This document shows, piece by piece, positions 2,232 through 45,599 of a stretch of 64,000 nucleotides of DNA; the first letter of the stretch is position 1; each line of letters begins with the position of its first letter. This DNA comes from Phycisphaerae bacterium (lineage in GTDB: Bacteria > Planctomycetota > Phycisphaerae > WQYP01): assembly GCA_035548175.1 (NCBI GenBank), contig DASZTO010000079.1, positions 21,733 through 85,732 of the forward strand, in the 5' to 3' direction. The notes beneath the pieces were generated by a model, which was given only the letters and a program-made list of their open reading frames with translations, was not told where the DNA came from and made no database searches. The translations under genes were made by a program, and so were the position numbers.

Positions 2232-2297
2232 GTCCATCCTTTCCGAATCGACCAGGCTTGTATTGCGGTCGCCGGAAGCCAGTGTTGTGGGAACTCT

Positions 2298-5200
2298 GTG
2301 CTCTCTGCGTTGCGATCTTTCGGACGCGCTCTGCGGCGGGCTCTCCATGAGGAGGGCCCGTCCGACCCCTCGGCCGCGCGCCTCTCACGCTACAAGGACC
2401 AGCGCCCTTCCGGCGTCGAATGGCTCGAAACCCGCCTCCTGCTTTCCACCATCACCTGGACCTCCAGTTCCTCGGGCAACTGGAACAACGGCGCCAACTG
2501 GAGCGGCGGCAAGGCGCCCGGCTCCGGCGATTCGGCCGTTATCGACGTGCCCGGCGTCACCGTCACCGTCTCCGACCAGGAGTCCGTCCATGACCTCTCC
2601 GTCAATGTGACCGACCCCAACAACGCTCCCACCCTCCAACTCACCGGCGGCTTCCTGGCCATCGGCGCCTCTTCCGCCATTAGCGGAAATCTGCAACTGC
2701 AGGGGGGCAATCTGTTTATCGGCAGCGGCACCTTGACCACCGCAGGAAACACCGATTGGGCCGGCGGCAACATCAACCTCGACGGCCACACCCTCCTCAA
2801 CACCGGAAACATGACCTGGGAAACCACCGGCGGCGTCTACGGCAACACCGGGCCCACCATCAATGGCTCCCCCAACCAGGGCGGCACCCTCGACAACCAA
2901 GGCTCCATCGCCGAATCCGTCAACGGTCCCACCCTCTTCGATTCTGTCCTTATCGAGAATGAAGCCACCTTCGACTTCACCGGCGATGCCGGCATGAACT
3001 ACGGTAGTGGCAGCCCAAACTTCACCAACGCCGCCACAGGCACCGTCGAAAAAACCGGCGGCTCCGGAACCTCCTCCTTCTCGGTCACCTTCAACAACCA
3101 GGGCGGCACCATCCATTCGGAATCCGGCACCCTCTCCCTGCCCTACGGCACCAATACCGGCGGCACCTATACCGCCGACCTCGCCGCCACGCTCCTCATC
3201 TCCGGCTTCCTCTCCGGCACTTACACCGGCGCGGGCCAGGGCACCGTGGGGCTGAGCAACAACATCCTGATCAACTCCCCCGGCGCCACCTTCGATTTCA
3301 CCGGCAACACCTTCCAGTGGACCGCCCACAACATCGATCTCGACAACCACACCCTCATAAACCTCGGCACCATCACCTTTAACACCTCCGCCGGCATCTA
3401 CGGCAACACCGGCATCGATCTCAATGGTTCCGGCAGCCAGGGCGGCACCCTCGACAACCAGGGGACCATCCTCCAGGCGGGCGGCTCCTACGCCCTCTTT
3501 GATTCCGTCTCCATCCTGAATGAGAACACCTATGACTTCACCGCCGACGGGGGCATCGCTTACGGCAACGCCAACCCCTTCGTGACCAACACCGGCCTGT
3601 TTGAAAAGACCGGTGGCGCCGGCACTTCCAGCACCGGCGTCACCTTCAACAACCAGGCAGGCACCGTCTACGCCAAAACCGGCACCCTTGTTCCCGGTCG
3701 CGGCACCAATACCGGCGGCACCTACAATGCCGACGCCAACGCCATCGTCGAACTGCAAGGTTTCCTCGGCGGCGCCTTCACCGGCGGCGGCGCGGGACAA
3801 CTGCTTCTCGGCGGCAACATCCTCATCTCCGGCAGCAACGCCACCTTCAACTTCCCCGCCAATTACTTTCTCTGGAACGCCGCCCATATCGACCTCGACA
3901 ACCATATCCTGACCAACACCGGCTTCCTCACCTTCAATACGTCCAACGGCTTCTACGGCAACACCGGCATCGACATCAATGGCAGCGGCAACCAGGGCGG
4001 TACCCTCGACAACCAGGGCACCATCATCCACGCCGGCGGGTCCCCGGCCATGTTCGACAACACCGAGATCCTCAATGAAGGCACCTATGACTTCACCGCC
4101 GACGGCGCGGTCGCCTATGGCAACGCCAACCCCCTCTTCGTCAACACCGGCCTCTTCGAGAAAACCGGGGGGACCGGCGCCTCGACTACCAGCGTCGGCT
4201 TCAACAACCAGGGCGGCACGGTTTACGCTCAAACCGGCACCCTCAACCCCGGCCGCGGCACCAATACCAGCGGCACTTACAACGCTGACGCCGGGGCCGT
4301 CGTCGAACTGCAAGGCTTTCTGGGCGGCACCTTTACAGGCAGCGGCGCCGGCCAACTGTTCCTTGGCGGCAACATCCTCATCTCCGGCAGCAATGCCACC
4401 TTCAACTTCCCGGCCAATTACTTTGTCTGGAACGCCGCACAGATTGACTTGGATAGCCATGTCCTGACCAATCTCGGCTTCCTCACCTTCGACGTCTCGA
4501 ACGGCATCTACGGCAACACCGGCATCGACATCAACGGCAGCGGCAGCCAGGGCGGCATCCTCGACAACCAGGGCACGATCCTCCAGGGGGCCGTCAACCC
4601 GGCGATGTACGACAGCACCGAGATTCTCAACGCGGGCACCTATGACTTTACCGCCGATGGCTCCGTCGCTTACGGCAACGCCAGCCCTACATTTGTGAAC
4701 ACCGGCCTGGTCGAGAAAACCGGGGGGGCCGGGGCTTCCGGCACCGGCGTGACCTTCAACAACGAGGGCGGCACCGTCTACGCCCACACCGGCGCACTGA
4801 ATCCCGGTCGCGGCACCAACACCGGCGGCGCCTACAACGCCGATGCGGGAGCCACCGTCGAACTCCAGGGATTCCTCAGTGGCACTTACACCGGTTCCGG
4901 CGGCGGCACGGCGACCCTCGGGGGAAACATCCTCATCAACAGCAACAATGCCACCTTCAATTTCCCCGCCCAATTCTTCCAGTGGACCGCCCATGAGATC
5001 GACCTCGACTCCCACACCCTGATCAACACCGGCTGGCTCACCTTCGCCACCACGGCGGGCATCCGCGGCAACACCGGCATCGATATCAACGGCAGCGGCA
5101 GTCAGAGCGGCGTCCTCGATAACCAGGGCACGATCTTCCAGGCCGGCGGCGCACCGGCCCTCTACGATTCCGTCGAACTGGAAAACGAGGGGCGGTACGA

Positions 5201-8200
5201 CTTTACGACCGCCGGCAACATCAACAACGGCAGCGGCAACCCCTTCGCCCTCAACGCCGCCACCGGCACGTGGGAATCCGATGCCAGCGGCATCTCCACC
5301 GTGAATCTGCCTTTCAACAACCAGGGCGGATCGGTCGATGCGGCCGCCGGCACCCTGGCGTTCACCGGCGGCACCAACACCGGCGGCACCTATTCGGCGG
5401 CGCTGGGGGCGGCGGTCCTTCTGGCGGGGGTCTTCGGCGGGTCTTACACGGGCTCGGGCAGCGGGGCCGTGTCGCTCAACTCCAATATCCTCATAAATGG
5501 ATCCAACGCCACGTTCAATTTCCCGGTGGGATTGTTCCAGTGGACGGGGGCGGGCATCGATCTCGACGGACACACCCTCACCAATACGGGCTCGATGACC
5601 TGGTCTGCTCCGGGGGCGCTCTTCGGGAACACCGGCATCGGAGCCAACGGCAGCGGCAACCAGGGGGGGACGCTGGACAATCGGGGCACGGTTCTGGCGA
5701 GCGGGACGGCGACGCTCTACGACAGCGTGTCCATAAGCAACGAAGGAACCTTCGACTTCACGGGCGATGCCGGGCTGGCCCTGGGCAATGGCAATCCGGG
5801 GGTGACGAACTCCGTCAGCGGCATTCTGGAGAAGACCGGCGGCACCGGCACCTCGGCCGTGGACCTGCCTTTCAGCAATGCGGGGTCGGTCATCGCGGCC
5901 TCTGGCACGTTGACGTTCACGCGCGGGGTCAGCCAGATTTCCGGCCACACGCTGACGGGAGGGGCGTGGGCCGCGACGCACGGGGCGACGCTGGTGATCC
6001 CCAGCGTGACGATCACGACCAACAGCGCGCAGGTGACGTTGAGCGGGGCGGGAGCGACGTTCGCGGCGATCAATTCGCTGGCGGACAACGAGGGATCATT
6101 CGCATTGACGGAAGGAGCCTCGCTGACGACCGCCGGGGCGTTGACCAACAACGGAACGCTGGTCCTGGGGCCGCACGGAACTCTGGCGGTGGCCGGATCG
6201 CTGGCGGAAGGCGGGGCGTCGGTGTTGAACATTCAGCTTGGGGGCACGCCGGCGTCGGGGGCGTTCGGGTTTCTCTCGACCACGGGGGTGGCGACATTGA
6301 ACGGAACGCTGTCGGTGACTTTGGCGGATGGGTTCGGGCCGACTGCGGGGCAGACCTACACAGTGACGAATTTTGCCAGCAAGACCGGGGCGTTCAGCAC
6401 GGTGACAGGAGGGGTCGTCAACGGGGTGACGCTGTACACGATTACCGTCAATGCGAATATCGTGATCAACGCGGTATCCAATAGCGCCGACCTGGCGGTT
6501 TCCAATGTGACCGCCCCGGCGTCCGCGGCGGGGGGGCACACCCTCACCATCACGTGGCAGGTGACCAATCTGGCGAGCACCGGGACGGTGGGGACGGACT
6601 GGGTGGATGACGTGTACCTGACGGCGGGGGGGGTGGTGAATGCGACCTCTATCCTGATAGGATCGGTCGCACACAGCGGGGCGGTGGGCGGCGGGGGGGG
6701 ATACAGCGGCAGTTTCAGCGGCACGGTGCCGACGAGCGTGCCGACGGGAACCTACACGGTGGTGGTGGTCATCGACGCGGGGAACGTGTTGCCGGACGTG
6801 AATCGGGCGAACAATATGGCGGCGGCGCCGGGGACAACGCATGTGACGCTGCCGGGGGGACCGGTGGTGGTCAGTCAGACGCCGACGGGGGCGGTTCCGG
6901 CGCCGCTGGATCATATTGATATCGTGTTCTCGGTGATCATCGATCCGACGAGTTTCAGCGCGTCGGATGTGCTGCTGGTGGGGGCGTCGGGGGCGGTGAC
7001 GGTGACGGCGATCGAGGAGATCAACGCGACGACGTACCGGATTCATTTCGCGGCGTTGTCGGTGGATGGGGCGTACACGCTGACGGTGGGGCCGGACGTG
7101 CGGGATTTGCAGGGCGATGAGATGGACCAGAACGCGGATGGCGTTCCGGGGCAGCCGTCGGATGCGTACGTGGGGACGTTCACGTTCCACTCGGTGGGGG
7201 CGCACGTGACGGGGAGTTTGCTGAACGGGACGACGGGGGGCAGCGGGCCGGTGAAGGGGCCGGTGTCGTCGGTGCAGGTGACGTTCAGCGAAGCGGTGCA
7301 GGTATCGACGTTCTCGGTGGCGGACGTGACGCTGACGGGGGTGTCCCACGCGTTCACGATCACGGGGGTAACGCCGGTGGATGCGGTGAACGGGGCGGCG
7401 ACGACATTCACGGTTACGTTTGCGTCCGCGTCGGCAAGCGGGCTGTACACGCTGACGGTCGGGCCGGACATTCTGGATTTGGTCGGTCTGGCGATGGATC
7501 AGGATGGCAACGCGACCAGCGGGGAACCGACGGATGCGTTCGTGCTGAACTTTACGATCGACAGCACCGGCCCGCAGGTGGTGTCGGTGACGCCGGGCGC
7601 GGGAAGTGCGGTGCATCAGCCGATCACGTCGGTGGTGGTGACGTTCAACGAGCCGATCGATCCGGCGACGTTCCTGGTGGGCTCGGTGTCGATCAACGGG
7701 CCGCCGGGGAGCATCTCCGCCGCAGCGATCACGGAAATTGACGCGACCGATTTCCGGATCAACCTGTCCACCCTTGCCGCTCTCGGCACGTATCATTTCG
7801 TACTGTCCCCCACGATCAGCGATCTCGTCGGTAATGAACTCGACCAGAATGCCAACGGCATCAACGGCGAGGCGGGGGATGCGTTCGCCTTCGACATCCT
7901 GCTTTCGCAGCCGAACCTGGTGGCGTCGGCGCCGTCCGCGCCGGTGTCGGCAAGCGCGGGCAGCCAGATCAGCGTCTCGTTCCTGGTGACCAACAACGGG
8001 AACCTGGCGGCGACGGCGCCTTTCACCGATGAACTGATTCTCTCGCAATCGGGCGTGCTGGGGGCGGGAGATAATCTGCTTCTGCAGGCGGTGACGGTGA
8101 ACGCGGACGTGGCGGCGGGGGGCTCGTACACGGAAGTGTTCACGACGAATTTGCCGCTGGGGATCGAGGGGGATTACACGCTGTTCATGGTGACGGATTC

Positions 8201-35200: not shown

Positions 35201-38200
35201 CTTCGTCGGCTACGACCAGCCCGTCATCTCCGCGGGAACCATCCTCACCGACGCCAACGGCGCACTGCTCAAATTCACCGACCGCACTGGCCACTTCTGG
35301 GAAGCCCTCGACGCGCTCCACGGTGACGCCTCCCGCGGCGCCGACATCGGCATCAGCATCTGGGGCGAACAAGGCCTCGCCAACCCTGGCTCCGTCCAGG
35401 TCATCAAGACCGCCGGCGACGCCAACGTCAATACCTGGGCTCCACGAGACCTCGGCAATGGCTCCAACCCGGGCCAATACATCCCTCAGACCCTGCCCCC
35501 CGCGCAGCTCCGCGCCGACGATGGCCCCACGCCCACGCCCTCTGCTCCCGCCAGCCCCACGCCCGCCCCCACCACCCCAGCCCCCGCCGCCCCCGCCGTC
35601 CCTCTCCCCGTCGCCGCCTACACCCTCGCCAACGCCGCCCTCGCCTTCTGGACCTCCGCCCTCCACCTCTCCACCGCCCCGCTCACCATCAACCTCGCCC
35701 TCCAGAACCTCCCCGCCGGCGAGCTCGCCGAATCCACCGTCACCGCCTTCGCCAACGGCCGCCCCTCCGCCGGCACCATCACCGTCGACCCCTCCGCCAA
35801 TGGCCACGGCTGGTACACCGACATCTCCGACCTCTCCGCCCCGCTCCCCATCACCGGCCGCTACGACCTCTTCACCACCCTCCTCCACGAAATCGGACAC
35901 CTCCTCGGCTTCACCATCGACAACCCCGCCTTCGCTTCCCACGTCCTCAACGGCGTCTTCTATTCCGACGGCCTCGCCCTCGACCTCTCCCCCGATCTCG
36001 ACCACCTCGCCCCCGCCGCCTTCCCCAACGATCTCATGAATCCCACCCTTGCCGCCGACACCCGCAAGCTCCCCTCCGCCACCGACATCGCCGTCATCCA
36101 GATCATCCGCAACAGCACCCTCGGCGCCGCTTACGTCCAGCAAACTCGCGCACTGCTCGTCGCACCCGACGCCGCCCAGCTCCAGCCCGTCGATACCTCC
36201 ACCCCGCCCCACACCGGCATCCTCAACGGCAACTTCGCCATCACCGATCCCGACGACCCCAACTTCGGCTGGACCCTCTCCCCCGCCGCCGCCATCAACC
36301 CCGGCCACGCCACCCTCGCCGATGGTTCCACCACCGTCACGCGCCTCCTCCAAACCTTCTCCCTCCCCGCCGGCGCCACCACCCTCCGCTTCACCATCAA
36401 CTCCGCCGCCTTCTCCGCCAATCCCGGCCAACCTGAAGACGCCTTCGAAGTCGCCCTCCTCGATCCCTCCACCCTCTCCCCGCTCGCCGGCACCGTCGCT
36501 CTCACCGGCTCCGATGCCCTCCTCAACATGCAGGCCGATGGCTCCCTCTACACCGCCCCCGCCGTCTCCCTCACCCGCAACGCCGACGGCACCACCACCG
36601 TCTCCATCGATCTCCAATCCCTCGCCCCGAATAGCGCCGTCACCCTCGCCTTCGATCTCCTCGGCTTCCCGCCCGCCGCCTCTTCCGTCGTTCTCTCCAA
36701 CGTCACCTTCGCCAATGCCACCCCGCCGCAGATCACCGGCCCCGCCGTCATCAACACAGGCCTCACCCAGCGCTCCACCATCTTCCAGATCTCCATCCCC
36801 CTCTCCGAAGCCGGCCTCTCCTTCAACCCCGACGCCCTCTCGCTCTTCCTCAACAGCTCCATCCCCGTCGATCTCTCCGGCCTCACCTGGTCCTTCGATT
36901 CCAGCAACAACCTCCTCCTCGATTTCCAAAACGTCCCCCTCGCCGATGGCAATTACCAGCTCCGCCTCGCCGCCGGCACCATCACCAACGCCTCCGGCAA
37001 TGGTCTCAACTTCGTCAACGACGGCCTCGGCGACACCATCGATACCACCTTCGCCGCCATCAACTTCTTCAAGCTCGCCGGTGACGCCAACGGCGATGGC
37101 ATCGTCGACGTCCACGATTTCCAGATCGCCCTCAACCCCAACAACCCCAACAGCGATCTCAATCACGACGGTGCCACCGACACCACCGATCAGAACATCG
37201 TCCGCACCAACCTCGGCCACCGCCTCGTCGAAATCGCGCCGCCCGTCCTCGCCGTCACCGAAAACTCCGGCACGCCCAACGACAACGCCCTCTCCTTCGG
37301 ACCCATCGCCGCCGGAACCTCCGCCGCCAACATCGCCGTCACCCTCACCAACAACGGCCAGCAGAATCTCTCCATCACCGGCCTCCAGCTCCTCTCCGGC
37401 GACACCTCCGCCTTCGCCTTCTTCATCGATGGCCAACCCCTCGGCACAACATCTCTCGTCCTCGCCCCCGGCCAATCCGCCACCCTCGAAGTCCAGCTCC
37501 TCGCCACCTCCGCCGGCGTCTATCACGCCACCCTCCAGTTCTTCCACAACGATCCCAACCAGCCCAACCCCTTCACCCTTTCCCTCTCCGCCACCATCAC
37601 CGCCGCCCTCAAGCCCCCCACCCTCGTCGTCACCGAAAACTCCGGCACGCCCAACGACAACGTCCTCTCCTTCAATACCGCCCTCGCCGGCGCTTCCTTC
37701 AAGCCCATCCCCGTCACCATCCAGAACACCGGCGACCAAACCCTCTCCCTCGCCGGCCTCCAGATCCTCGGCCCCAACGCCGACGCCTTCGCCTTCTCCA
37801 TCGATGGCCAGCTCCCCGGAACCACCTCCCTCCTCCTCGCCCCCGGCGCTGCCATCACCCTCGAAGTCTCCTTCCTCGGCACCGACCCCGGCGATTACAG
37901 CGCCACCCTCGAACTCTTCCACAACGATCCCCACCAACCCAACCCCTTCACCCTCTCCCTCAACGCCTCGCTCCTCAAACCCATCCCGCCCACCCTCGTC
38001 ATCACCGAAAACGCCGGCACGCCCAATGACAACCTCATCCCCTTCGGCGCCTTCGACCCCAACGTCACGCCCACCCCCATCACCATCACCCTCGCCAACA
38101 TCGGCGATCTCCCACTCTCTCTCGCCGGCATCCAACTCGGCGGCGCCAACCCCGCAAACTTCGCCTTCCAACTCGATGGCCAACTCCCCGGCACCACCTC

Positions 38201-39194
38201 CCTCCTCCTCGCCCCCCACTCCTCCATCACCCTCACCCTCTCCTTCCTCCCCGGCAACCTCGCCACCACCTTCTCCGCCACCCTCTCCTTCTTCACCAAC
38301 GACATCCTCTCCCCCAACCCCACCCTCACCCTCACCGGCGCACGCCGCCCCGGCATCCTCATCCTCGTCCCCGTCCCCGTCAGCCTCCCCATCGTCACCG
38401 TCTCCGTCCCCACCACCACCGCACCCACCACGCCCACCGCACCCACCGCACCCACCACGCCCACCACGCCCACCGCACCCACCGTCACCACGCCCGTCGT
38501 AACCACCCCCGTAGTCACGCCGCCCATCATCACCACACCCGTCGTGACCGACCCTGTAATCTCCACTCCCATCATCCCCACGCCGGCCCCCACCGATCCC
38601 GTCACCTCCACCCCCACGCCCGCCACACCCCCCGCGCCAGTCGCACCCGCTCCCACTCCCGCCGCTCCCATCCTCCCCATCGCCACCCCCATCATCGCCA
38701 CGCCCACTCCGCAAGATCCCATTCCCACGCCGCCATCACCCACCCCCACACCCACCGACACCACCACCATCGCCCCGCCACCCGCGCCCACCGCCACCAC
38801 CACGCCAACCGCACCCGCCGCACACGTCACCTCCACCTCGCCGACATCGCAGAAAACTCCCCCGGCGCCCGCAAGCCCGCACCTCCCGCTCCACAAACCC
38901 ACCCCCAAGCCCACCTCCCACCTCGCCCAAGCGCCAACACACACCATCGTCCCCACAGCGCCCGCTCCCGCCCCCGCCGCCAAATCCCCCACGCCCCACG
39001 CAACCCCCGCCCCCACTCCCACTCCCACCCTCACCCCCGCCACGCACGCCCAGCTCCCCGCCCTCACCCCCATCACCCTCCCCGCCCTCCACACCACCAA
39101 CACCACGCCCCTCCACATCACACCCACCCCGCTCTTCACCCTCCGCCCGCAAAACAAAAAACCCACCCCCGTCCTCCTCCTCCCCAAACGCTGA
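2298..39194 (+). CDS. Giant (12,298 aa) extracellular Rhs/YD-repeat protein with CARDB, Ig, dockerin, beta-propeller, toxin-like and peptidase modules
   Basis: One uninterrupted ORF with recognisable domains along its whole length. LEPR-XLL-type motif WLETRLLLS at 2421-2447. Rhs core signature FTGREFDASTGLYYFRARYYDASLGRFLTQD...NLYRYASNNPTNVVDPSG. The exact start (GTG 2298) is uncertain. Confidence 0.93.
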   Translation: MLSALRSFGRALRRALHEEGPSDPSAARLSRYKDQRPSGVEWLETRLLLSTITWTSSSSGNWNNGANWSGGKAPGSGDSAVIDVPGVTVTVSDQESVHDLSVNVTDPNNAPTLQLTGGFLAIGASSAISGNLQLQGGNLFIGSGTLTTAGNTDWAGGNINLDGHTLLNTGNMTWETTGGVYGNTGPTINGSPNQGGTLDNQGSIAESVNGPTLFDSVLIENEATFDFTGDAGMNYGSGSPNFTNAATGTVEKTGGSGTSSFSVTFNNQGGTIHSESGTLSLPYGTNTGGTYTADLAATLLISGFLSGTYTGAGQGTVGLSNNILINSPGATFDFTGNTFQWTAHNIDLDNHTLINLGTITFNTSAGIYGNTGIDLNGSGSQGGTLDNQGTILQAGGSYALFDSVSILNENTYDFTADGGIAYGNANPFVTNTGLFEKTGGAGTSSTGVTFNNQAGTVYAKTGTLVPGRGTNTGGTYNADANAIVELQGFLGGAFTGGGAGQLLLGGNILISGSNATFNFPANYFLWNAAHIDLDNHILTNTGFLTFNTSNGFYGNTGIDINGSGNQGGTLDNQGTIIHAGGSPAMFDNTEILNEGTYDFTADGAVAYGNANPLFVNTGLFEKTGGTGASTTSVGFNNQGGTVYAQTGTLNPGRGTNTSGTYNADAGAVVELQGFLGGTFTGSGAGQLFLGGNILISGSNATFNFPANYFVWNAAQIDLDSHVLTNLGFLTFDVSNGIYGNTGIDINGSGSQGGILDNQGTILQGAVNPAMYDSTEILNAGTYDFTADGSVAYGNASPTFVNTGLVEKTGGAGASGTGVTFNNEGGTVYAHTGALNPGRGTNTGGAYNADAGATVELQGFLSGTYTGSGGGTATLGGNILINSNNATFNFPAQFFQWTAHEIDLDSHTLINTGWLTFATTAGIRGNTGIDINGSGSQSGVLDNQGTIFQAGGAPALYDSVELENEGRYDFTTAGNINNGSGNPFALNAATGTWESDASGISTVNLPFNNQGGSVDAAAGTLAFTGGTNTGGTYSAALGAAVLLAGVFGGSYTGSGSGAVSLNSNILINGSNATFNFPVGLFQWTGAGIDLDGHTLTNTGSMTWSAPGALFGNTGIGANGSGNQGGTLDNRGTVLASGTATLYDSVSISNEGTFDFTGDAGLALGNGNPGVTNSVSGILEKTGGTGTSAVDLPFSNAGSVIAASGTLTFTRGVSQISGHTLTGGAWAATHGATLVIPSVTITTNSAQVTLSGAGATFAAINSLADNEGSFALTEGASLTTAGALTNNGTLVLGPHGTLAVAGSLAEGGASVLNIQLGGTPASGAFGFLSTTGVATLNGTLSVTLADGFGPTAGQTYTVTNFASKTGAFSTVTGGVVNGVTLYTITVNANIVINAVSNSADLAVSNVTAPASAAGGHTLTITWQVTNLASTGTVGTDWVDDVYLTAGGVVNATSILIGSVAHSGAVGGGGGYSGSFSGTVPTSVPTGTYTVVVVIDAGNVLPDVNRANNMAAAPGTTHVTLPGGPVVVSQTPTGAVPAPLDHIDIVFSVIIDPTSFSASDVLLVGASGAVTVTAIEEINATTYRIHFAALSVDGAYTLTVGPDVRDLQGDEMDQNADGVPGQPSDAYVGTFTFHSVGAHVTGSLLNGTTGGSGPVKGPVSSVQVTFSEAVQVSTFSVADVTLTGVSHAFTITGVTPVDAVNGAATTFTVTFASASASGLYTLTVGPDILDLVGLAMDQDGNATSGEPTDAFVLNFTIDSTGPQVVSVTPGAGSAVHQPITSVVVTFNEPIDPATFLVGSVSINGPPGSISAAAITEIDATDFRINLSTLAALGTYHFVLSPTISDLVGNELDQNANGINGEAGDAFAFDILLSQPNLVASAPSAPVSASAGSQISVSFLVTNNGNLAATAPFTDELILSQSGVLGAGDNLLLQAVTVNADVAAGGSYTEVFTTNLPLGIEGDYTLFMVTDSGNAEAESSEADNAASAPIHINHAALPNDLAVDVITSPASGQTGQQINVAWRVDNVGTAGISGALTWNDEVILSADDTLGNGDDVVLGTFSHSGPLASGGNYTQSQNVALPANLAAGNYHIFVLTDSGNAVSEPGGKANNSLESGTVLAVSLSPAATLSTSNVTFTGTTVIGQMLAVFWTVTNTGQATATPPAGGWIDRVYVTTDGTLNTATLLASAPHVNALAAGSNYAGSIQVTLPALADGTYQLLVFADATSTVFTRSPASTRMAVSGNLSLTHPDLVVTGITLPNGPIQSGQTITLNWTGQNNGTAAVTGTFVDAVYLSTTTTVPAGATALSSFVHTGTLGIGGTYNGSATFTLPNGLSGVYRLIVVTNATGVVIEGAASANDTTASAPIAIALAPYADLTVSNVVAPAQVVGDPVDLSVSWTVTNNGTGTGTVSTWTDRVVLSGDDVYGNGDDVVIGNFTHVGLVNPGASYTSSQIILLPPATQGHFHLLVRTDAGGAVFDANPAPVNVAEPNHFVDVVTKPYAALSVDSVTAPATGFSGQPITISWIVSNQGIGTTDESAWNDQVYVSSDPTGAGGLTPIQAFVHQGALAVGGSYTATQQVTLPANLSGTQYIFVDSSGPFQFTHTDKNLGHSGAIQVQFVPPPAVDLSVVAGSVTAPATPFDGNSITVSWSVINNGPESLDNSYHWTDSLYLAPGGVFANAIHIADYDYNQGLMAGQSYTRTQTITLPIHISGIYTLFVQTDSGSRILETNESNNLGNSDDIAVSLTPRPNLTVSSTLSSFSVTAGAGIDVSWTVTNLSTASTPVGASRWKDGVYLSFTHTLDSSGILLGELPNGSALAGGESYSSSAHFTLPLAVSGNAYIIIKADDQNLIDTYPNANNSAYAIPIAINAQPVPPPDLVVSNVFNPATVFNGSPVTVHYRVTNLGSGVTFPSSWTDQVWLTLGTDRPDPMRGDFMLGAFGHSGTLNVGDFYDNNVTVTLPNYISGNYYITVWTDPGHAVFQEHLDTNINPDAPHDLLGDNFKADPISVLLTPPADLVVTSLIAPPTAQGGNQVTLTWTVANQGAARTDQSLWADAIYLSPDGVHEGTLVFAMPHSGALEIGASYTQTATFTLPPNAEGNYFLVETNQSPGLAQTTDDLFAQQIQQIVDSTEATLNGQDPTTLTAQQILSILAGPTPQARVFEGPFTNNDSRSAPTTITDTPADLVVTNVTIGQQTQFSGEAINVSWTVQNVGAAVYSGTTSWTDYIFVSPDPTFIYRRATMVAAVQHDNSGGMPNGGSYTGSTTVMLPAGISGERYVYVFSDRRGGADNDDLIPQEGFPGWPEVFAHRVYEADKSNNVNSSALNVVYREPDLTISNLTVTPSTLAGSTITVSFQVNNIGNRATRTSNWFDRVYISTDQTLDYYDELLGSQQHTTVLAAGASYTVTMAVTLPFNFSGPFYILAFTDSPFVIDGYANPPPYPSTAGDHRLTGGGDGLVEEYQGEGNNVTAAPITVLAVPPPDLVVASISTPAHVLMNQSFTVDYIVLNQGAGDVPAGQTTWTDTVYLSRDNVLDVNSAIYLGAIKHTTGLGAGQIYEVVQTFALPHGITGPYYVLVLTDTPTSGKVRGFVIEADEGNNASASPVPMLIDQPPPADLQVDIVNGPQVATSGNPITVSWTVSNHGNVPATGGWTDAVYLSSDGNYHVGDPLIGTVDHGSLGGSDSFAPGDSYTASLTAVLPIALPGRYYVVVRTNIFNDIYEGPFVTNNTNASFDPVVVSVQTLQLDQLFNTTISSGQTRLYRVQAPANATLQINLANANNAGANEIYTRFEALPTEATSDSAFTGHLVADQTAIVPTTAGGYYYILVVGDSEPQSNTPISLYATLLPFEITGITPDVGGDSGYVTTTITGAQFDPQAIVKLIRPTIAEFEPVSYKVVNATEIVATFNFTNAPHGLYDVQVTNPDGRSVIIPYRYLIEAAQPLDLAVAMGGPPNLNFGQIGIYGLSVKSTTNVDTPYVFVQYGVPHLSNPNTGIIPGERLVFRTDLNGHPAIDGVTWDSLNPVVNINGDLRAPGVAMDLADQGFATVSFTADAYPQLRQLLAQDPNYLNNLLPFELDELAFDFYIEASATPMTRDEYVAYQTNIAETLRQNVLNSDTAPASLLLAASDSPSWDAAYLAALQQTGQLRAQDADPVVQIAPQFISLVSIMSGGLFTGDEAANTLASGDFVDFFNMVRTLYGSDDSAIGGGAVADESLYDLHLSSPTHFETFTIHVGPGQAVEASPTDPNLSNFFGITGSRSTAATMTGPNGYGDASIVPANTPLPYTVNFSNPTPNTGINHIAIEEQLDPNLDVRTFRLSSITLGGITVPIPTGRASFTGQFDFTDQLGVLINVTAGVDVNSGIAVWDIQAIDPSTGLPTTDPAFSLLGAGQTGQIGYTIDVLSSVHSGDTVSATARVVLNGGSPIDTAPVSNTVDAVAPVTTLSVSQTSDGSYALNWTSQDDAQGTGIKDYTVYVSANGGPYSIYQLHITDTSLVVPGFPGTSESFIVLAEDNAGNIESAPPGIDLPSFSPDLNLGILPTAPDTEEEPLTPAPPPQVPPSNPVFVQAQGGVPSHLPGTNPPAFTTVLAPLTIGSLITQVQQSGASIGPLGMVFLPDGQHLLISGGPGRNSLYLFSLSGGAALTPLITLDVPIYDMAFDAAGQLWATTGGGPLVQLDPTTGAILGRYADSIGLGLAVQGNTLYVSTGSGIQTFDTLAHTFHPFSSTRVDGLAFAPDGTLWGASWPTRGTILQFDAHGKPTAILNVPDAVGLAFGAANTPLANLLFVSRDDGTLTMVDLTSLQTVDVATDGSRGDFAHIGPDGRLYLTESDQLDVLFPLLPPHVIFTTPGNGSTLKPVVNSITLTFDTDMDATTGDPHSVTSIANYTLIDTTTGQTLPIGAITYDSASRSAELWFESLRPDSYQLTISTDVQSALALGLEAPYVEAFTILVDFASLTPTFSNTRLNRTTGALSFDVSLSNSLNSAVTAPVRLIFTGLGETGDTLINPDGFTSDGHPYVDLQTTGLLTPGATTPSRTISIMDADGALITLLPEIVAALAPDQLPIISSTPGTVSLAGTPYTYRPQAADPENGPLSYVLISGPSTAAIDPATGVVVWTPKSSDPAKDTFDLRVYDSRGGFVDQLWTVGVMNQAAAPVLAPIGKQTVNEGGVLTVPVGAYDAAGLPLVYWAENLPAGAIFDAASQAIDYRPGAHDAGTYNGVAVYVSDGVNTVSTSFTIVVNPVAQRPIFASLADKTINEGALLLVTLHATGQNGSALNFSADALPPGAALNTTTGVFTWQPGFNQAGTYAITFTAADASASSSQTLNITVLPVTAPITFVPVQHLFIDAGQPLTIRLGVNDPEYPAGNDSSTSISSDITGDTSNDAPLSFSFAALPDGASFDPTTHILSWIPTPAEAGDHAFTFFATDTSDNMSASTSFTVTVRDVNVPPVVTPIDNQTVSPGGLLDIPLSATDANGDPITFSAAGLPPFATLTDNHNGTGTIHVAPGATQYGNFTITLTASDNGHGDPNNIQSSSILFVLTSTAPNLPPTLPFIPDKVAVVGSDQPISLTVVAGDFLQHALTPSATGLPGGAMFAATSTYGVFVFSWIPQVADFGPHTITLTVTDATNPALSASRTFTINVRSADRPPVLAPVPNQNGAESSPLAFTLSATDPDGDAITYLAGNLPTGATLDPQSGAFSWTPAYGQNGSYVVTFTASDGAMSSNSNVLLTIAKSNRPPILQQIPNILGQENTPISLQLAGSDPDGDTITYTVVGTLPTGAGFNPQTQEFTWTPTPGQAGNYTLIFQATDTSGASAQVAVKVQVLHLNLPPTIATLGQKNLLIGRPFTLQIPGSDPNGDALTYSATGLPDGALLNSATGVLTWTPSAAQAGRADLVVMASDGQYTAVQSLGLIVSTQPVAPSLLIDLTPSFPAVPGQAVVVHAAASSLIGIASLVMTINGVPQTLDANGRVTFTPTAAGHYAIVAIATDSNGVQATATADLKVKDANAAAPTVSLNPPGLISTPANITGAVTGSNLDKWSLTLSVLGAANTITLATGSQATAANAILAAIDPATLANGAYLLTLTATDIAGRTATRSQVMEIDSANKSGAYLQTATDLTASLDGETFTLTRYYNSLEAYEAGLVGFGWNLAGADAHVASSAAPAAANSLPNPFAVGTRVYVDLPDGSRAGFTFTPVAHTVSGVTYYTPAFTADAGVLYSLATTATQLSLVNGSYFQLGTGLPFNPAGGAFGTIAYTLTAPDGRTYSYGADAKLKQITADGKTFIFSGSGLIGPDGSRITFQFDSSGRLTTATGPDGTQVHYTYDAAGDLISANHDAYAYINGHLLTVALDATPTAATYDPNGALESTGPILDTLAFNQTDAGTLAAGATAFYAARISAAELASSGGQITVALDVLHNGAHSVAFETVTTAGAVLLPVAGFSGAYQATYFLPGDINGDGTVDGVDETLFAAALGSSVGQAGYSLAADIDRDGAVTPTDHSFLANNFGATEDRPPVVTGGSGATYPDLDVLTDLAPLSSDPQGLPLIYTFSNVHGGTVRLSSDGHTAIFSPFDGFTGAASYDFAADDGVFDSNTATVNVTVNDATLVNITFSQRDVDLAAAGAALQLTFTGLFSDGSSAPLPATFLHFATTDPSRFIVTSSGTLFAEGNGTAILTAVSHGVTAATPVTVGAADTRPLQFFPLTYTLPLGVTRQFQVRYNSGVNVLDLAPAAGNTFYFLSNTSVGAITPDGLFTPTALGAVYVTVINGGQSVVVPITVTTPSTGPTTIDSSGGIVGDSQGDSLGIPEGSLASGSTISVTPLTNLPYALPDGFDFYGGLHVDLGGANLTQPASVTIKAPDNLPTGAKVYLWVPITIETDAAEGPVQSWLLIDHMTVGADGYLRTTSAPYGGFVGGFPNNGGALVSIDLTSVVAAGSADLGAVELLEGHINDVNSEGTVTLQMQWGGSSTAKYYAVPGSVGDILIPAFGGINTTITVNRTVGTLSTKTSTGVFLAPGQESAIVALPLPPQLVFPTVPPPAIVSASFDFGPDPQHPAPRVVLKGINFLYNNPYSTSANPLPLGTDYKDLYVTFEVGGRDTFDDKGKVQLVGGRDARVNGSDPGVVFTDLGMVNGQHEYELDIPVPNTIALGNAFITVTRPSSEPLNGLFARQEFTSNAVNVLPQNQYALAADGGTDATGRNYVSVIDTTQTTKINGVTKAQPTPIAQIPLGVGTTITSLYPRFVTVTPDGTRAYVTLQGDYGIAVIDLETLQEIDMLPNDPNNPLTSGVQHIRLKNANGAQPFQGVIDATGHYLYISDQASSNIYVIDVDPFSPTYNQHVKTITIPSYFAPLGLRGIAINSDSTRLYVTAPGRTLQGQYVNETGNIIVINIDPTNPKAPFFDTPSAQNVIPVGPDPYGITGTDNPNVMLFTDQLDDTKGMGQLVRTTFTGGAELYVAHYTDFTSFGVIRRWVENRPNQAFGVSNATGIVYLPADTFKSVLGYSHPSYAFITGYDKYVPDDPKHDPSEGPLLTFNFYYQDKNGLTIPVPVAAGGNVAIIRDPVDKNPQTDFLNPETQPRLVAATRPVQNSFPDNLVLSGDYSELLAGYQALNSVFAFSTIQIVADVEAQVKMAFIGNSDQIPAPYSVPSDLSHLLRGPLSTVPIDDIDRAIDIAADDEFYTNSARGLSFGTPPKGIFGESPNQEAPLVVGRLPRGLAATPHLPGGVITLASTPYNQAPTLSAFPNNSLQVSAGLTATADVHTGALMETHDLPTYQSVGQTRGVTLTYSSLRADPTVLYYFSIDNLPTNLPADSLLVVTLTARLGTFSKTAPGMTATDAAALGLPANANVYQLPATIPANYTYGAGIFLNLESTDENGNPVYPDSGVYTFVLNYGIYTKVGNVYQGRLAQLISPIAVVDQEDSPFGAGWGMNNYYQIYQGDGSVLLSNGNGQSEIFLAPDKIGDPYTSESADQSQLLQQTDGTFVRKMLDGTTYKFNDQGKLATITDRNGNVTTYNYAADDKTLLSITDPVGLVTRFVYNGTHISQIIEPVNRATTLVQTGDNLTQITDPDTTYVSFAYDNSAYKHALTSEIQKRGNASNPSDPRGADPQKMGSSFKESWTYSVYGRLTGGTRVDGKKFTLTPAQATAILPESITFDPDGNAKYHGVTSDPKSPPMLQVLISPGTDPITGDAIFLNAAAATYVNFNGDTKTFYLTSSGQLVLTKDKDGTETTTSRAPDNGLIQTQIDALKNKVVYTYDPFNNLISQTDFPDGPGTTRGVTQTWTYEHTFNQMTSYTDGIGRTTTYVIDPNNGNIKSKTVTLGNASLTTRYTYDAHGMMLTMTDPDGHITTYTYDSMENRQSESLGTSTTTWIRDGAGNVTTLIDPDGHTTTTTYDKMNRVLTISHVLSSTNQTATITYGYDAAGNQVAVKSPNQTANVAPGRTTLQYDTLNREIQETDALNRTRKWAYDYSAGLTTYPVDNISGDQYSYYTDPMGYSTVAIYDERGNKIEAYDVAGNKTSYEPDPDGRVIAITNPLGQIQTFTYDGRSRLTTSTGNGNGAAGMVTYTYDDANRRTSMTVSNNLTGGSGDQKTTWTYDLLDDVASQLDPAGNLTTYTYNGEGKITSMIQAAGASIQRTVTYKYDAEIRVSDTIVDGMYDTQFIYDNNGNIIERIDPRGAAFATFTSYDEMNRPIETIDGNGNRTETVYDLDGNVVAVIDGRANGDRSNSQYRTSYAYDAADQRTSVTDAANNTITMQYDFDGNLSIVTDPRTNTSGQHYTTTTTFAYVNGQKIVTTTNANGDQSTVTYDVLGRIIDIKDVRGYHTYYHYDLTTGRKDYMIDAAGFKTLYFYDQVGNLIQQQVTRQNGAVTLTTLFSYDKLNRLISTIFAFSTPDQITTSRTYDALGRLDTETDGLNRVTKYTYDDLDHLTLVQKALNSAVEADWQYSYDAVGNLMQTTDPDGNVTTRTYYNNNQVKTITLADQTSDASTTTYFYDKADDVIEIDGPLNSPTGGPYRVTFTYDGNRRLASKTDAMGNETDYTLDAAGNPIVVTQHDPVGGTTRITRTTYDGMNRMSSQTDAAGRTTTFIYDASGNLMRKVGPLTNLNGTPYEVDYTYDALNRVLTQTDSFAGSSGHTTLFSYDEHNLLKVTEPGGGYTTVYTYDHLDRVLTLTRDISPTAKSTETYTYDDVGNILTYTDGDGHITFNTYDDQNRLTAKTVAYQTTVAVTTRYGYDKNGNLLEVFDTRGSQYDTVYTYDHLNRRTTITRANGSPIAATTYYRYDAASNLISVTDPRGDSSGLNFTSHFSYDADNRLVMAVDPLGLVTTTTYDAFGNVLATTDPYGNTVNHTYDGINRPLTTTVNSILGQFTTTTTYLDGGSFVRVTDPRSHSTLYVYDGNGRILSVTDALNHSATYAYDANGNLADATDKRGFTTHYVYDGLNRIVETDALYLSPHQFVQNKTDYDAVGNALTVTDSLGFKTVTTYDELNRPTKIVRASGTIYQTTESYTYDAVGHIATFTDRDGVVTQYTTDFLGRITLITRAPGTPVAAATQLGYDLVGNTTSTISPGGLHRTSTFDADNRLTSTALATNQYPQPLTTTTTYFDLPGDSRHISVTDPMGITVTTWFDQLGRVRLVQDPLNGDTTTDYLDETSFITHTHHGLDDFTYTPDDLYRTAKSVDAAGHITTTAYDEDGNVTGSVDGANESMTYTYDGLDRITSSSDPLQNTTYFTYDNAGNRLTLTDPNNNTTTFAYDPFGRMISQIDAAHNTTTWTYDGDGNLLFTTDRDGRTIKYSYDALNHRTLEQWFPKGANTPAYTIKTSYNLDGQLLSVSDPSASYQYAYDDIERVTAIANKGAPGLPLTTVSYSYDKDSRITSVSAAVNNSLILTTSYIYDPNSGRLNSVRQSGPAISSLRVDFTYLSTAYQLSSVSRYSDLAGAQLVATSIYGYSPSNQINSLVHTNAAGGTIDTYSLTYDNANRIITDTNSDGMITYTYYPDSQLQSVHYTDPAQTSEVYAYDPGGDRSSGSTVYGPDNELMSDGTYTYAYDNEGNLISRTKVSDGSVRLFTWDFRNRLTSVIDKNAQGTVLDETTFTYDALNRRISETVITPGQPNASTRFVYDQENVLLEFSAATGTANGEALGTTDSGAQFSGALMHRLLTPGSLTITVGAAQLTDDGDGNLSDAAGDTGTIDYQSGDWTLTLAAPSPGASILASYQFATAAFSRFYLHGLATDQLLAQQDSSGNVLWTLPDQLGSTRDLIDNSAAVLDHIKYDAFGNIVSRANPSVYNRYFFTGREFDASTGLYYFRARYYDASLGRFLTQDSAGFSAGDTNLYRYASNNPTNVVDPSGNFGIDASPIDGLESRFISNYGLRVSQITYNTWAIGGVYSPDSYDVRNSVQQAGAVAKEIYDYGINLPMTVLSAAKQAVENFTNYLIPQSPMVAFIVSRALNFTIDVANLALCAAFPPLGAWEAVDFALGAPQLATGLYNSVSTLYSAATNGITTDAGANAGKSEYDRKVTLKQAQDAYKNVIDTVLGFAAGGTVHALNEGAGKPEPKSITEPEETSPGRPPPEAQSTAEAVVATQIEEGTPPPAVEPPPPVVDSAPPLDMVNEHPQEAESKPVEAEPEPAKLEQTSVEEHTAPNAKAVELEQPWELGFEDGFGFGIGEGEEFSAPKADQVDPGPPPPAPAESPGASGETVRESAAAATAPAAGASAALASAARGVIGAVALSAADAFTAAAMDSFLTEPWTLSPFDFDEGLTPVATVEAPIPAPEPTPPVPDSGGATPGETVVQEFKTDSETTQKVEQTAPAPAPEAPPAGEPPPAAPSADDLDTWSKEPIDGWVVPKKLTGKRFADWNVESAMQNRVEFGEMDAQSIKRAPYKAGAWDTRYKLKGVQASPFDLFFTKEEMEAYLADNPDAQFNPPPVDFTANGTLDGQRIVTHNGNLVWAKNGRPVRTAGFSTDTEFIVVFDEAGNAYGFQRGPGLADVRHSGFVGYDQPVISAGTILTDANGALLKFTDRTGHFWEALDALHGDASRGADIGISIWGEQGLANPGSVQVIKTAGDANVNTWAPRDLGNGSNPGQYIPQTLPPAQLRADDGPTPTPSAPASPTPAPTTPAPAAPAVPLPVAAYTLANAALAFWTSALHLSTAPLTINLALQNLPAGELAESTVTAFANGRPSAGTITVDPSANGHGWYTDISDLSAPLPITGRYDLFTTLLHEIGHLLGFTIDNPAFASHVLNGVFYSDGLALDLSPDLDHLAPAAFPNDLMNPTLAADTRKLPSATDIAVIQIIRNSTLGAAYVQQTRALLVAPDAAQLQPVDTSTPPHTGILNGNFAITDPDDPNFGWTLSPAAAINPGHATLADGSTTVTRLLQTFSLPAGATTLRFTINSAAFSANPGQPEDAFEVALLDPSTLSPLAGTVALTGSDALLNMQADGSLYTAPAVSLTRNADGTTTVSIDLQSLAPNSAVTLAFDLLGFPPAASSVVLSNVTFANATPPQITGPAVINTGLTQRSTIFQISIPLSEAGLSFNPDALSLFLNSSIPVDLSGLTWSFDSSNNLLLDFQNVPLADGNYQLRLAAGTITNASGNGLNFVNDGLGDTIDTTFAAINFFKLAGDANGDGIVDVHDFQIALNPNNPNSDLNHDGATDTTDQNIVRTNLGHRLVEIAPPVLAVTENSGTPNDNALSFGPIAAGTSAANIAVTLTNNGQQNLSITGLQLLSGDTSAFAFFIDGQPLGTTSLVLAPGQSATLEVQLLATSAGVYHATLQFFHNDPNQPNPFTLSLSATITAALKPPTLVVTENSGTPNDNVLSFNTALAGASFKPIPVTIQNTGDQTLSLAGLQILGPNADAFAFSIDGQLPGTTSLLLAPGAAITLEVSFLGTDPGDYSATLELFHNDPHQPNPFTLSLNASLLKPIPPTLVITENAGTPNDNLIPFGAFDPNVTPTPITITLANIGDLPLSLAGIQLGGANPANFAFQLDGQLPGTTSLLLAPHSSITLTLSFLPGNLATTFSATLSFFTNDILSPNPTLTLTGARRPGILILVPVPVSLPIVTVSVPTTTAPTTPTAPTAPTTPTTPTAPTVTTPVVTTPVVTPPIITTPVVTDPVISTPIIPTPAPTDPVTSTPTPATPPAPVAPAPTPAAPILPIATPIIATPTPQDPIPTPPSPTPTPTDTTTIAPPPAPTATTTPTAPAAHVTSTSPTSQKTPPAPASPHLPLHKPTPKPTSHLAQAPTHTIVPTAPAPAPAAKSPTPHATPAPTPTPTLTPATHAQLPALTPITLPALHTTNTTPLHITPTPLFTLRPQNKKPTPVLLLPKR
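2772..5900 (+). repeat. Six tandem ~185-aa Gly/Asn/Thr-rich repeats (probable beta-helix/solenoid) in the giant protein
   Basis: The I(N/D)LD(G/N/S)H.L.N.G motif recurs at 2772, 3333, 3888, 4443, 4998 and 5556 (period 555-561 nt). Each copy has GNTG..NGS..QGG.LDNQG-like and EKTGG.G.S-like segments. Confidence 0.9.
6483..13490 (+). repeat. About 15 CARDB domains plus three SbsA/Big-type Ig domains (6860-7900)
   Basis: Recurring (P/A)DL.V..V..P....G..I.VSWTV.N.G......W.D.VYLS...G.Y...V.TD...E..E.NN pattern. The three Ig domains each end in DQ(N/D)..G..G. Confidence 0.85.
17445..20030 (+). repeat. Tandem putative Ig (He_PIG/cadherin-like) domains
   Basis: Recurring A.DPDGD.ITY.A..LP.GA..D..TG.F.WTP...Q.G.Y...F.ASDG motif. 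Confidence 0.8.
21609..21773 (+). other. Dockerin type I-like domain 1 (duplicated Ca-binding loop)
   Basis: GDINGDGTVDGVD...ADIDRDGAVTPTD..FLANNFG. Confidence 0.8.
25506..33269 (+). other. Main Rhs/YD-repeat cage and Rhs-associated core ending at the DPSG autocleavage motif
   Basis: Dozens of T.Y.YD..GN/..TD..G repeats. The core ends NNPTNVVDPSG (DPSG at 33258-33269). Confidence 0.92.
35040..35303 (+). other. Putative toxin domain in the Rhs C-terminal region (HS..F/AG/GH motif family)
   Basis: IVTHNGNLVWAKNG...FIVVFDEAGNAY...VRHSGFVG..PVISAGTI...NGAL..FTDRTGHFW. By eye this aligns with the HSSF-AG-SGHY motif set of plant IQM domains and of some bacterial Rhs toxin tips. Confidence 0.55.
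35886..36050 (+). other. Zinc-metallopeptidase-like motif (HEIGHLLG...DH...DLM Met-turn)
   Basis: LFTTLLHEIGHLLGF, then PDLDHL and NDLMNPTL. Confidence 0.65.
37080..37217 (+). other. Dockerin type I-like domain 2
   Basis: GDANGDGIVDVHD...SDLNHDGATDTTD.NIVRTNLG. Confidence 0.8.
37239..38350 (+). repeat. Three tandem ~124-aa ASH/choice-of-anchor-D-like Ig repeats, followed by a Pro/Thr-rich tail to 39194
   Basis: PP.L..TEN.GTPNDN...F at 37239, 37614 and 37986. Each copy has N.G...LS..G.Q...AF..DGQ..GTTSL.LAP; the first two end FHNDP.QPNPF. Confidence 0.8.
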
Positions 39195-39229
39195 TCCCCC
39201 CTCAGCGTCTCCATGCCCTCCTTACTCCC

Positions 39230-39360
39230 ATCGCGCCAACTCCGTGCGCCGTAGCAAGATTCTGGCATCACAAATTTCGTGTCTTTGGTGCTTTTCGTGG
39301 CCATTTACGTCGTCGTCGTGGCACGGGGGGGCCTCCGTGCCCTCCGTGTTCTCCGTGGTT
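39230..39360 (+). repeat. Dispersed ~130-170 bp intergenic repeat, copy 1
   Basis: atcgcgccaa...caa(a/c)tttcgtg...ttcgtggcca(c)tttacgtcgtcg...ctccgtgccctccgtg, shared with 39777-39924 and 41252-41423. Confidence 0.85.
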
Positions 39361-39391
39361 CCCTACACACGTCCCCCCCCGCACGGCCCGC

Positions 39392-39428
39392 AAAAATACG
39401 CAAGGCCCAGCTCTCGCCAGGCCTCGCG
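39392..39428 (-). terminator. Rho-independent terminator of the small Lys-rich gene
   Basis: Minus strand cgcgaggcctggc-GAGA-gctgggccttgcg: 13-bp stem with G-U pairs and a GNRA loop, followed by tattttt. Confidence 0.75.
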
Positions 39429-39457
39429 ATTCTTTCATGCCGCTCTCGCGGCCACGA

Positions 39458-41588: not shown

Positions 41589-41597
41589 CCCTCCCCT

Positions 41598-43249: not shown

Positions 43250-43285
43250 TCCCAATCCCCGCCGCCTGCTCCCAAATCACACCCG

Positions 43286-43427: not shown

Positions 43428-45599
<2,172 letters not shown>

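Follow-up and report, generated by a model that had tools for sequence, protein, structure and literature searches.

Bacterial chromosomes are generally held to replicate from a single origin each, and GC skew is a routine tool for finding that origin and for checking assemblies. In mammals, a sawtooth skew profile, the 'N-domain' or 'factory-roof' pattern, has reportedly been attributed to multiple replication origins by Touchon, Huvet, Arneodo and colleagues. The present analysis concerns a 64,000-nucleotide stretch of DNA (hereafter the window; G000:C79:21733-85732) from a soil Phycisphaerae bacterium, whose genome (G000) is a metagenome bin of 4,789,735 bases in 99 contigs with an estimated contamination of 2.24%, and in particular a giant open reading frame (ORF) on its + strand (2298..39194) in which an extreme skew of synonymous codons changes sign twice. 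This ORF proved to be one instance of a periodic pattern that extends through the genome. The pattern resembles the skew described by Lobry in that it is a bias of the DNA strand, seen at fourfold-degenerate and intergenic sites alike, and a relative of the same class (G024) carries the classical two-arm form. It differs in having some 70 or more pairs of sign changes per genome rather than one, with a period of roughly 50-70 kb, in reaching a fourfold skew of 0.96 with almost no AT skew, and in the dominance of G:C<->C:G transversions. With the mammalian N-domains it shares abrupt upward jumps, sloped declines and independence of gene orientation. However, it occurs in a bacterium, its domains are 10-100 times shorter and about ten times larger in amplitude, their profile is plateau-like rather than linear, and the jumps are linked to an oriented repeat. 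The amplitude is also far above the typical effect of about 2.5% given in a database paper (PMC8941118). A search of the literature, supplementary files aside, returned no account of a bacterium with periodic skew domains close to saturation, and the accessible portion of an article on skew as an assembly check (PMC7111523) describes no such pattern.

The giant ORF is uninterrupted, as stated in the initial annotation. It comprises 12,298 codons, and its product is surface- or adhesin-like, with Big_5, CARDB, He_PIG, Big_9 and dockerin domains and RHS/YD repeats. When (G-C)/(G+C) was calculated at fourfold-degenerate sites in bins of 333 codons, the skew was -0.70, -0.78 and -0.63 over 2298-5294, rose to +0.24 at 5295-6293, and then held at +0.70, +0.63, +0.75, +0.57, +0.64, +0.55, +0.60 and +0.48 over 6294-14285. 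It passed through -0.14 and -0.04 at 14286-16283, fell irregularly thereafter (-0.50, -0.28, -0.62, -0.44, -0.78 and onward to -0.96 at 27273-29270), and remained between -0.71 and -0.94 in the 3' part up to the stop codon. The course from C-rich to G-rich and back to C-rich codons that the initial annotation had noted thus persists at fourfold sites, and the base counts given for two of its sequence lines (32 G with 11 C, and 4 G with 36 C) were reproduced exactly. The internal control offered by the repeated peptide QGGTLD, which is spelled with C-ending codons at 2877 and 3438 and with G-ending codons at 5661, was likewise exact, and had no match in 100 shuffles. The initial annotation had further held that both transitions are gradual; this is true of the second switch (~13-27 kb), but the first is sharp, being confined to about 0.8 kb (5.3-6.1 kb) at 50-codon resolution. 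Coding on the + strand continues through the G-rich part, as eight stretches of CARDB similarity were found at 8298-14297 (+) (E 1.7e-76), whereas the antisense ORF at 6096..15731 (3211 aa), like all three long antisense ORFs over the giant gene, had no Pfam match. By our own reasoning, the long antisense ORFs arise because G-ending sense codons remove antisense stops. Chimeric assembly was examined with contigs from a single study, which are therefore not independent of that study. A 46-kb contig of run X1, possibly the source of the assembly, covers 1500-21499 with no differences and even depth, and short contigs from three other samples showed no differences over both switch zones (e.g., 5364-6101 and 14088-15683). 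These comparisons give no hint of a chimera. The gene holds two flips because it is 37 kb long and so takes in one abrupt switch (5.3-6.1 kb) and one midway zone (~14-20 kb); the flip is a by-product of the location of the gene, which is not itself special.

Genome-wide, genes were called from ORFs with high GC content at third and low GC content at second codon positions, and 2490 of these contained at least 60 G or C fourfold sites. Their coding-strand fourfold skew is bimodal, with modes at -0.9 to -0.8 and +0.8 to +0.9, the coding strand being C-rich in 52% and G-rich in 48%. Window genes of either orientation follow the local sign, and in neither G000 nor G024 is the sign set by the coding strand, as it would be for transcription-associated skew. 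Intergenic spacers lying between strong-skew genes of the same sign shared the sign of their flanking genes in 483 of 495 cases (means -0.30 and +0.30). A bias that is independent of gene orientation and extends into intergenic DNA is a property of the DNA strand by position, not of genes, codon selection or expression, and it is mutational rather than selective. Whole-contig skews range from -0.35 to +0.33, values in 2-kb windows are bimodal, and the sign alternates in all 25 of the longest contigs. Contigs longer than 20 kb contain 72 rising and 73 falling sign changes, several per contig, instead of the two switches per replicon of classical bacterial GC skew. Plateaus lie at about +0.3 to +0.5 and -0.2 to -0.5, the strand bias switching approximately every 25 kb. 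After each rising jump there follow a plateau of 15-40 kb, a passage through zero of 4-15 kb, and an opposite plateau that lasts until the next rising jump, the spacing of rising jumps being 22-73 kb over eight measured intervals.

The two kinds of switch differ in form: changes from C-rich to G-rich are sharp, and changes from G-rich to C-rich are sloped. Between adjacent 4-kb windows, rising steps outnumbered falling ones by 22 to 3 above 0.55, by 47 to 12 above 0.45 and by 69 to 33 above 0.35, and in 2.5-kb bins steps above 0.35 were divided 51 to 13. It had been argued from the intact reading frame and the gradual transitions that simple inversion cannot account for the pattern, and imports from differently biased donors had been named as a possible source. 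Given the unequal edges and the gradients, both are rejected as the main cause. Flips inside genes exist elsewhere and are uncommon, as a change-point test identified 18 among 1742 genes of at least 300 codons, and a strict comparison of first and last thirds, each required to reach 0.4, found none among 534 genes of at least 600 codons. One gene on contig C27 (40891-44766, +; 1292 codons) shows an unusually sharp falling flip, its first 146 G or C fourfold sites having a skew of +0.62 and the other 559 a skew of -0.71; the same local positive blip is present in the congeneric genome G003, and this gene may be a fusion or contain a small translocated piece.

Many rising switches lie near copies of a dispersed, oriented, non-coding element of roughly 400 nt, which was first met in comparisons of contig against contig. 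A profile of this element matched 56 places in the genome, about 35 of them at full length and many at contig ends. All measurable upstream flanks are negative (-0.16 to -0.50), such that the element always occupies the C-rich strand; on the downstream side, 33 of 49 copies have a skew above +0.1 at a distance of 5-10 kb. Averaged in the orientation of the element, the skew is -0.37 over at least 15 kb upstream, reaches zero at +3.3 kb and then has a median of +0.25. The flip falls between +2.0 and +3.5 kb in about 24 of 33 copies, and a change-point fit placed the switch 1.9-5.9 kb downstream in about 27 of the 33. Viewed from the switches, the element is within 6 kb of about 24 of the 47 sharp rising jumps, always on one side only, and a lower-copy repeat lies at a similar distance from about 8 more. 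No sequence is shared by 28 change points, some of which are inside genes, and no second or partner element was found on the far side of the jumps. Reading by eye assigned the genes directly 3' of the element to unrelated housekeeping functions (AccA-, RecA-, MnmA-, MetK-, SerA-, HslU-, ClpC-, Dxr- and Pyk-like).

The element combines inverted repeats that do not vary between copies with a middle module of heptads, which does vary, and a tail rich in A. The middle (alignment A1, columns ~220-310) occurs in two alternatives, a CTTCGTG-heptad type and a CAATTAC/CCAATTACC type, and smaller hairpin or heptad repeats have apparently been inserted or swapped within the larger element. Identity as a structured non-coding RNA found no support, as Rfam gave no match at E up to 0.01 over 46-58 kb of the window, and RNAalifold found covariation in 0 of 30 predicted pairs across 11 copies. 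A 33-nt pattern had no match in a scan of the genome contigs in the collection. Outside G000, just one genome of the public collection scanned carried an exact 18-mer of the element repeatedly, a 'Phycisphaerae bacterium' metagenome-assembled genome (MAG), which accounted for 15 of the 36 loci returned. Dispersed intergenic repeats are familiar in bacteria as repetitive extragenic palindromic (REP) sequences and bacterial interspersed mosaic elements (BIME), and putative mobile promoters are said to have been described by Matus-Garcia et al. in 2012. The present element is of this kind in that many similar non-coding copies, conserved over ~400 nt, stand strand-locked 5' of dozens of non-homologous genes and contain nested heptad hairpins; it differs in that no promoter consensus of the sigma-70-like type was detected in the window copy. 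We know of no link between REP-like or mobile-promoter repeats and skew switches.

The substitutions underlying the skew were examined at fourfold sites of conserved codons between G000 and G003, oriented to the C-rich strand, the differences being unpolarised. Variants from the comparison with sequencing samples gather near contig ends in a repetitive gene and were set aside. In strong-skew zones, 11,017 sites on the C-rich strand comprised 80.5% C, 10.1% G, 5.2% T and 4.2% A, and the 1948 differences consisted of 852 C<->G, 538 C<->T, 363 A<->C, 86 A<->G, 71 G<->T and 38 A<->T. The weak-skew zones contributed 4564 sites and 1506 differences, 1009 of the latter being C<->G and 288 transitions. 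As transitions are barely favoured once composition is taken into account, the skew is built mainly by G:C<->C:G exchanges at sites held as G or C. Misinsertion, lesion bypass with a preferred nucleotide and blind spots of mismatch repair are candidate sources of such exchanges. Asymmetric deamination of cytosine was rejected as the driver, since A<->G and C<->T differences occur in nearly the same proportion as G and C, and genes of the UDG family are present. Explanations from gene content yielded no lead: UDG genes occur in 31 of 31 relatives, the strongly skewed ones among them, RNase H genes were detected in 24 of the 31 without apparent relation to skew, and the two Y-family polymerase genes of G000 are of ordinary length. 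Fourfold divergence between G000 and G003 was 33% in weak-skew zones (1506/4564) and 18% in strong-skew zones (1948/11,017). Divergence therefore varies with domain position, and synonymous distances are not comparable between genes in such genomes.

The pattern is present in relatives. The congeneric G003 (~90% nucleotide identity), of which ~236 kb entered the comparison, has the same skew amplitude and the same excess of sharp rising steps, and a rising switch follows 2-4 kb after each of two element copies there (C25 and C41). In G006, a member of the same family, the skew swings between about -0.45 and +0.45 along an 826-kb contig and rises sharply at ~302, 354, 430, 498 and 558 kb, the balance of sharp steps being 6 rising to 2 falling; the element profile gives weak partial matches only. 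Strong skew occupies half of one contig of G012, short loci in G001, G007, G014, G022 and G030 hint at strong local skew, and the parts sampled of G017, G005, G009, G013, G021 and G026 are weakly skewed. Most orthologous blocks shared by G000 and G003 have retained their oriented skew. A small number of less similar ones (e.g., 78-80% identity) differ, at 0.00 versus -0.38 and -0.08 versus -0.44, which suggests that the pattern is still being written. The interpretation offered in the initial annotation, namely a position-dependent, strand-asymmetric process of mutation or repair acting on a scale of 10-40 kb, is supported by the strand-based, genome-wide and intergenic nature of the bias and by its presence in relatives, whereas the kind of process, be it replication, repair or another, is a matter of inference. 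The periodicity, the association of rising edges with a repeated element and the preponderance of G:C<->C:G transversions go beyond that annotation.

A sign for the skew is provided by G024, a complete genome of the same class with a classical two-replichore profile, in which the skew is negative between ~0.15 and 1.70 Mb and positive beyond 1.71 Mb. The sign changes at ~1.708 Mb, in the interval between two genes (1707.1 and 1708.3 kb), 0.2-0.28 Mb from the dnaA genes at 1.91 and 1.98 Mb. Genes of either strand have a fourfold skew of -0.24 on the left of this switch and of +0.24 on its right, and 53% and 61% of genes are co-directional with forks leaving the switch. The G-rich strand is thus most likely the leading strand in this class, which would make the rising jumps of G000 origin-like. 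A local sawtooth was sought in G024 and not found, the sharp steps being 0 rising versus 1 falling at 0.35, with a skewness of -0.11.

Taken together, these observations allow the construction of a model in which strand-asymmetric mutation is tied to DNA synthesis diverging in both directions from many fixed sites, a reading that commands about half of our confidence and in which the replicative step is inferred. In this genome, silent and non-coding positions have reached ~80-95% C on one strand or the other, the strand being set by position in the domain only. Within each period, an abrupt switch of the + strand from C-rich to G-rich at a fixed point is followed by a plateau of 15-40 kb, a passage through zero about midway and an opposite plateau. 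In the model, the rising switches would be replication-initiation-like sites, forks would meet in the zones between them, and the leading strand would be the G-rich one, by analogy with G024. Many of the sites would lie 2-3.5 kb 3' of the oriented, promoter-like element, and initiation may be set by its transcript, possibly through an R-loop or transcript priming. Diverging synthesis is consistent with the strand basis of the bias, the equal and opposite plateaus, the contrast between abrupt rises and sloped falls, and the sign in G024, while the one-sided position of the oriented element, its variable offset and the lack of a consensus at the switches would fit a start set by a transcript. 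Under the G024 sign, the rplB cluster, two tandem groEL genes and a third groEL gene of G000 are co-directional with the forks so placed; rpoB lies at near-zero skew, which gives it neither direction. Origins primed by a transcript or R-loop are known from ColE1 RNA II, phage T7, the mitochondrial light-strand promoter and heavy-strand origin (LSP/OH) and the constitutive stable DNA replication of E. coli. The likeness consists in an oriented, promoter-like element upstream, a downstream start without a consensus of its own and the absence of DnaA boxes. However, the distance here is 2-3.5 kb as compared with 0.2-0.6 kb, the transcripts would be ordinary, C-rich mRNAs, and priming is hypothetical in the present case. 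In its fullest form, the model would comprise ~70-80 start sites free of DnaA boxes and ~60 kb apart, each set by the transcript of a mobile promoter-like element, and the organism would be the first eukaryote-like multi-origin bacterium; we regard this form as doubtful. In that reading, multi-origin replication could be read from sequence because lopsided G:C<->C:G mutation has driven silent sites near saturation.

However, a number of observations weigh against diverging synthesis. No repeat lies near about 15 of the 47 sharp jumps, including that of the giant ORF, and a scan of the window copy of the element, which covered sigma-70-like promoters, returned no site. In the other MAG that bears the element, the skew is -0.2 or lower in 5 of the 6 upstream flanks that could be measured, yet just 4 of 7 flanks on the downstream side have a positive skew, such that support from this genome is weaker. 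The G000 genes of the DnaA family (C34:24679-25161, -, and C49:50300-50779, -; two are also present in G003 and in G024) both lie away from jumps, and the first is not co-directional under the canonical sign. Clusters of at least three DnaA boxes, with up to one mismatch allowed, were limited in G000 to three weak ones, none at a jump. Only 48% of G000 genes are co-directional with the proposed forks. Within 5 kb of rising jumps, 58% of genes on the left and 68% on the right point at the jump and would be head-on, as would every element-driven housekeeping gene. AT skew at fourfold sites is almost nil, unlike classical replication skew, and the T-over-A excess of the G-rich strand that is classically expected is absent at these sites. 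The lack of a local sawtooth in G024 also tells against the model. Further, C-rich transcripts, such as would be expected from the element, disfavour stable RNA:DNA hybrids, and to our knowledge multiple chromosomal origins are not established in any bacterium. Read depth is available as one value per contig and so cannot show copy-number gradients. A weak cluster of three DnaA-box-like sites was noted at C34 3862-4200, ~20 kb from the first dnaA copy.

The orientation of genes could instead be accommodated by reversing the polarity, such that rising switches are fixed points where forks meet at polar barriers, at or behind element-driven transcription units, with diffuse initiation in the sloped zones and a C-rich leading strand in this lineage. 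The genes that point at rising jumps from both sides would then lie with the forks (58% of those on the left being on the + strand and 68% of those on the right on the - strand), the 22 sharpest jumps include six convergent gene pairs and no divergent pair, and the element-driven RecA-, MetK-, ClpC-, HslU-, AccA- and Pyk-like genes would become co-directional, as selection usually favours. However, it is the G-rich strand that leaves the switch nearest dnaA in G024, in agreement with gene orientation there, and reversal would place the rplB cluster of G000 head-on, together with its three groEL genes. Several change points are inside genes rather than at the ends of transcription units, and many initiation zones would still be required, so that we hold this alternative to be unlikely. 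An explanation outside replication, to which we give the same low standing, would invoke recurrent breaks or nicks a few kb past strong promoters, followed by long resection and biased resynthesis, or else read-through transcription on the scale of a domain, the bias fading with distance. Such an explanation is favoured by the tie between switches and an oriented promoter-like element rather than DnaA boxes, and by the near absence of transition bias, as if new bases were chosen with little regard to the old ones, which could fit bypass or fill-in synthesis that prefers one nucleotide. The profiles, however, run from one plateau to the opposite plateau with no decay to zero, and saturation at 80-95% C requires an asymmetry that outweighs symmetric mutation, which is easier for a process acting in every generation. 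Transcription at the level of single genes is excluded by the 52%/48% split of coding strands, and by our reasoning 5' resection with damage to the exposed strand would give the right sign only if damage to guanine, not cytosine, dominates.

A mosaic of rearrangement or recombination would require strong skew from a single origin that was broken up by repeated inversions, or pieces of paralogues from the other replichore inserted into the giant gene. Strong single-origin skew does exist in G024, blocks of synteny between G000 and G003 extend over only 1-20 kb, with some inverted, nothing in G003 matches the first 20 kb of the giant gene at the DNA level, and the C27 gene offers a very sharp falling flip. 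However, many of the apparent breaks in synteny are merely contig ends, and inversions would give equally sharp edges, contrary to the counts above (47 versus 12; 51 versus 13), and could neither yield gradients of 10 kb nor keep reading frames intact. Nor would a mosaic explain the periodicity or the position of all element copies, which lie on the C-rich strand at a fixed distance before rising edges and not at both kinds of edge, and we find it very improbable. An artefact of assembly, which a fragmented metagenome bin with some estimated contamination might invite, or translational selection for different synonymous codons along the gene, is barely credible: one spanning contig and three other samples agree with no differences at the switch zones, the same pattern appears in two other genomes, the bias extends to intergenic DNA, and genes on opposite strands of one domain use opposite codons. 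Synthesis diverging from many sites remains the preferred reading of the pattern.

Within the window, the domains and their genes can be placed as follows. A domain that is C-rich on the + strand, and that begins upstream of the window, occupies 1..5300 by fourfold skew; in it, a minus-strand gene (6..1385) uses G-ending codons, with a coding-strand fourfold skew of +0.72. The sharp rising switch inside the giant ORF (5300..6100), which has no copy of the element within 6 kb, leads to a G-rich plateau (6100..13300; +0.48 to +0.75) and a graded falling transition (13300..27000; about zero at 14.3-16.3 kb and -0.86 by ~27 kb). The C-rich plateau that follows (27000..53270) reaches -0.96, and neighbouring + strand genes range from -0.76 to -0.97. 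A copy of the element lies on the C-rich strand at 51025..51465 (+), complete with inverted repeats, heptad module and A-rich tail, and directly 3' of it is a glycosyltransferase-2-like (GT2-like) gene, identified by reading the translation by eye (51783..52821, +). The second sharp rising switch (53000..53500) has its change point at ~53,274, 2.2 kb 3' of the start of the element and between the convergent 3' ends of the GT2-like gene and a TPR gene (53290..55992, -). The two rising jumps of the window (~5.7 and ~53.3 kb) are thus 47.6 kb apart with one sloped zone between them. Beyond the second switch, the + strand is G-rich (53500..64000); the five minus-strand genes at 53-63 kb have C-rich coding strands with C-ending codons, and the + strand gene at 62976..63983 has a G-rich coding strand.

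The C-rich plateau is interrupted at ~48-51 kb by a stretch of weak skew and lower GC content (0.55-0.58, as compared with ~0.65 around it), which contains an AAA_21/AAA_15 ATPase gene (48884-50638, +), AbiEii/OLD-like by Pfam name. This stretch resembles DNA acquired so recently that the local strand bias is not yet imprinted on it. C-rich heptad-like repeats of CCCCTGT type were seen just 5' of the element copy (50960-51020). Directly 5' of the giant gene, an ORF at 1564-2231 (+) encodes a small secreted protein with a PEP-CTERM-like tail, judged by eye, and is probably in an operon with it; the N-terminus of the giant protein carries an LETRLLLS motif, which we take to be typical of planctomycete exported proteins. 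An FtsH ORF (42603-45599, +; 998 aa) is matched by relatives outside the genus only from residue ~290-330 onward, and its N-terminal part contains stops in the closest relatives, such that the extension may be an ORF-calling artefact of C-rich upstream DNA. Long ORFs that lack family matches and are born of composition were found at 50801-53596 (+), 6096-15731 (-), 21141-27395 (-) and 32259-38714 (-). The first, of 931 aa, was considered as a protein and rejected as a composition artefact, its translation being rich in P, S, T and A. Such ORFs arise where a frame in C-rich DNA meets few stops or where a frame runs antisense to G- or C-ending codons, and automatic gene callers could annotate them as proteins.

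The present data indicate that either the rule of one origin per bacterial chromosome is broken in this organism, or a very strong position-dependent mutational process is linked to a repeated promoter-like element. In either case, a bacterial genome carries sign changes, ~70 in number and spaced at regular intervals, whose shape has hitherto been ascribed, in animals, to multi-origin replication. In lineages of this kind, prediction of origins from skew, detection of inversions and skew-based assembly checks fail, and codon usage and ORF-based gene calling are distorted, as illustrated by spurious ORFs such as 50801..53596 and 6096..15731 (-). Synonymous divergence in such lineages likewise depends on the position of a gene within its domain.

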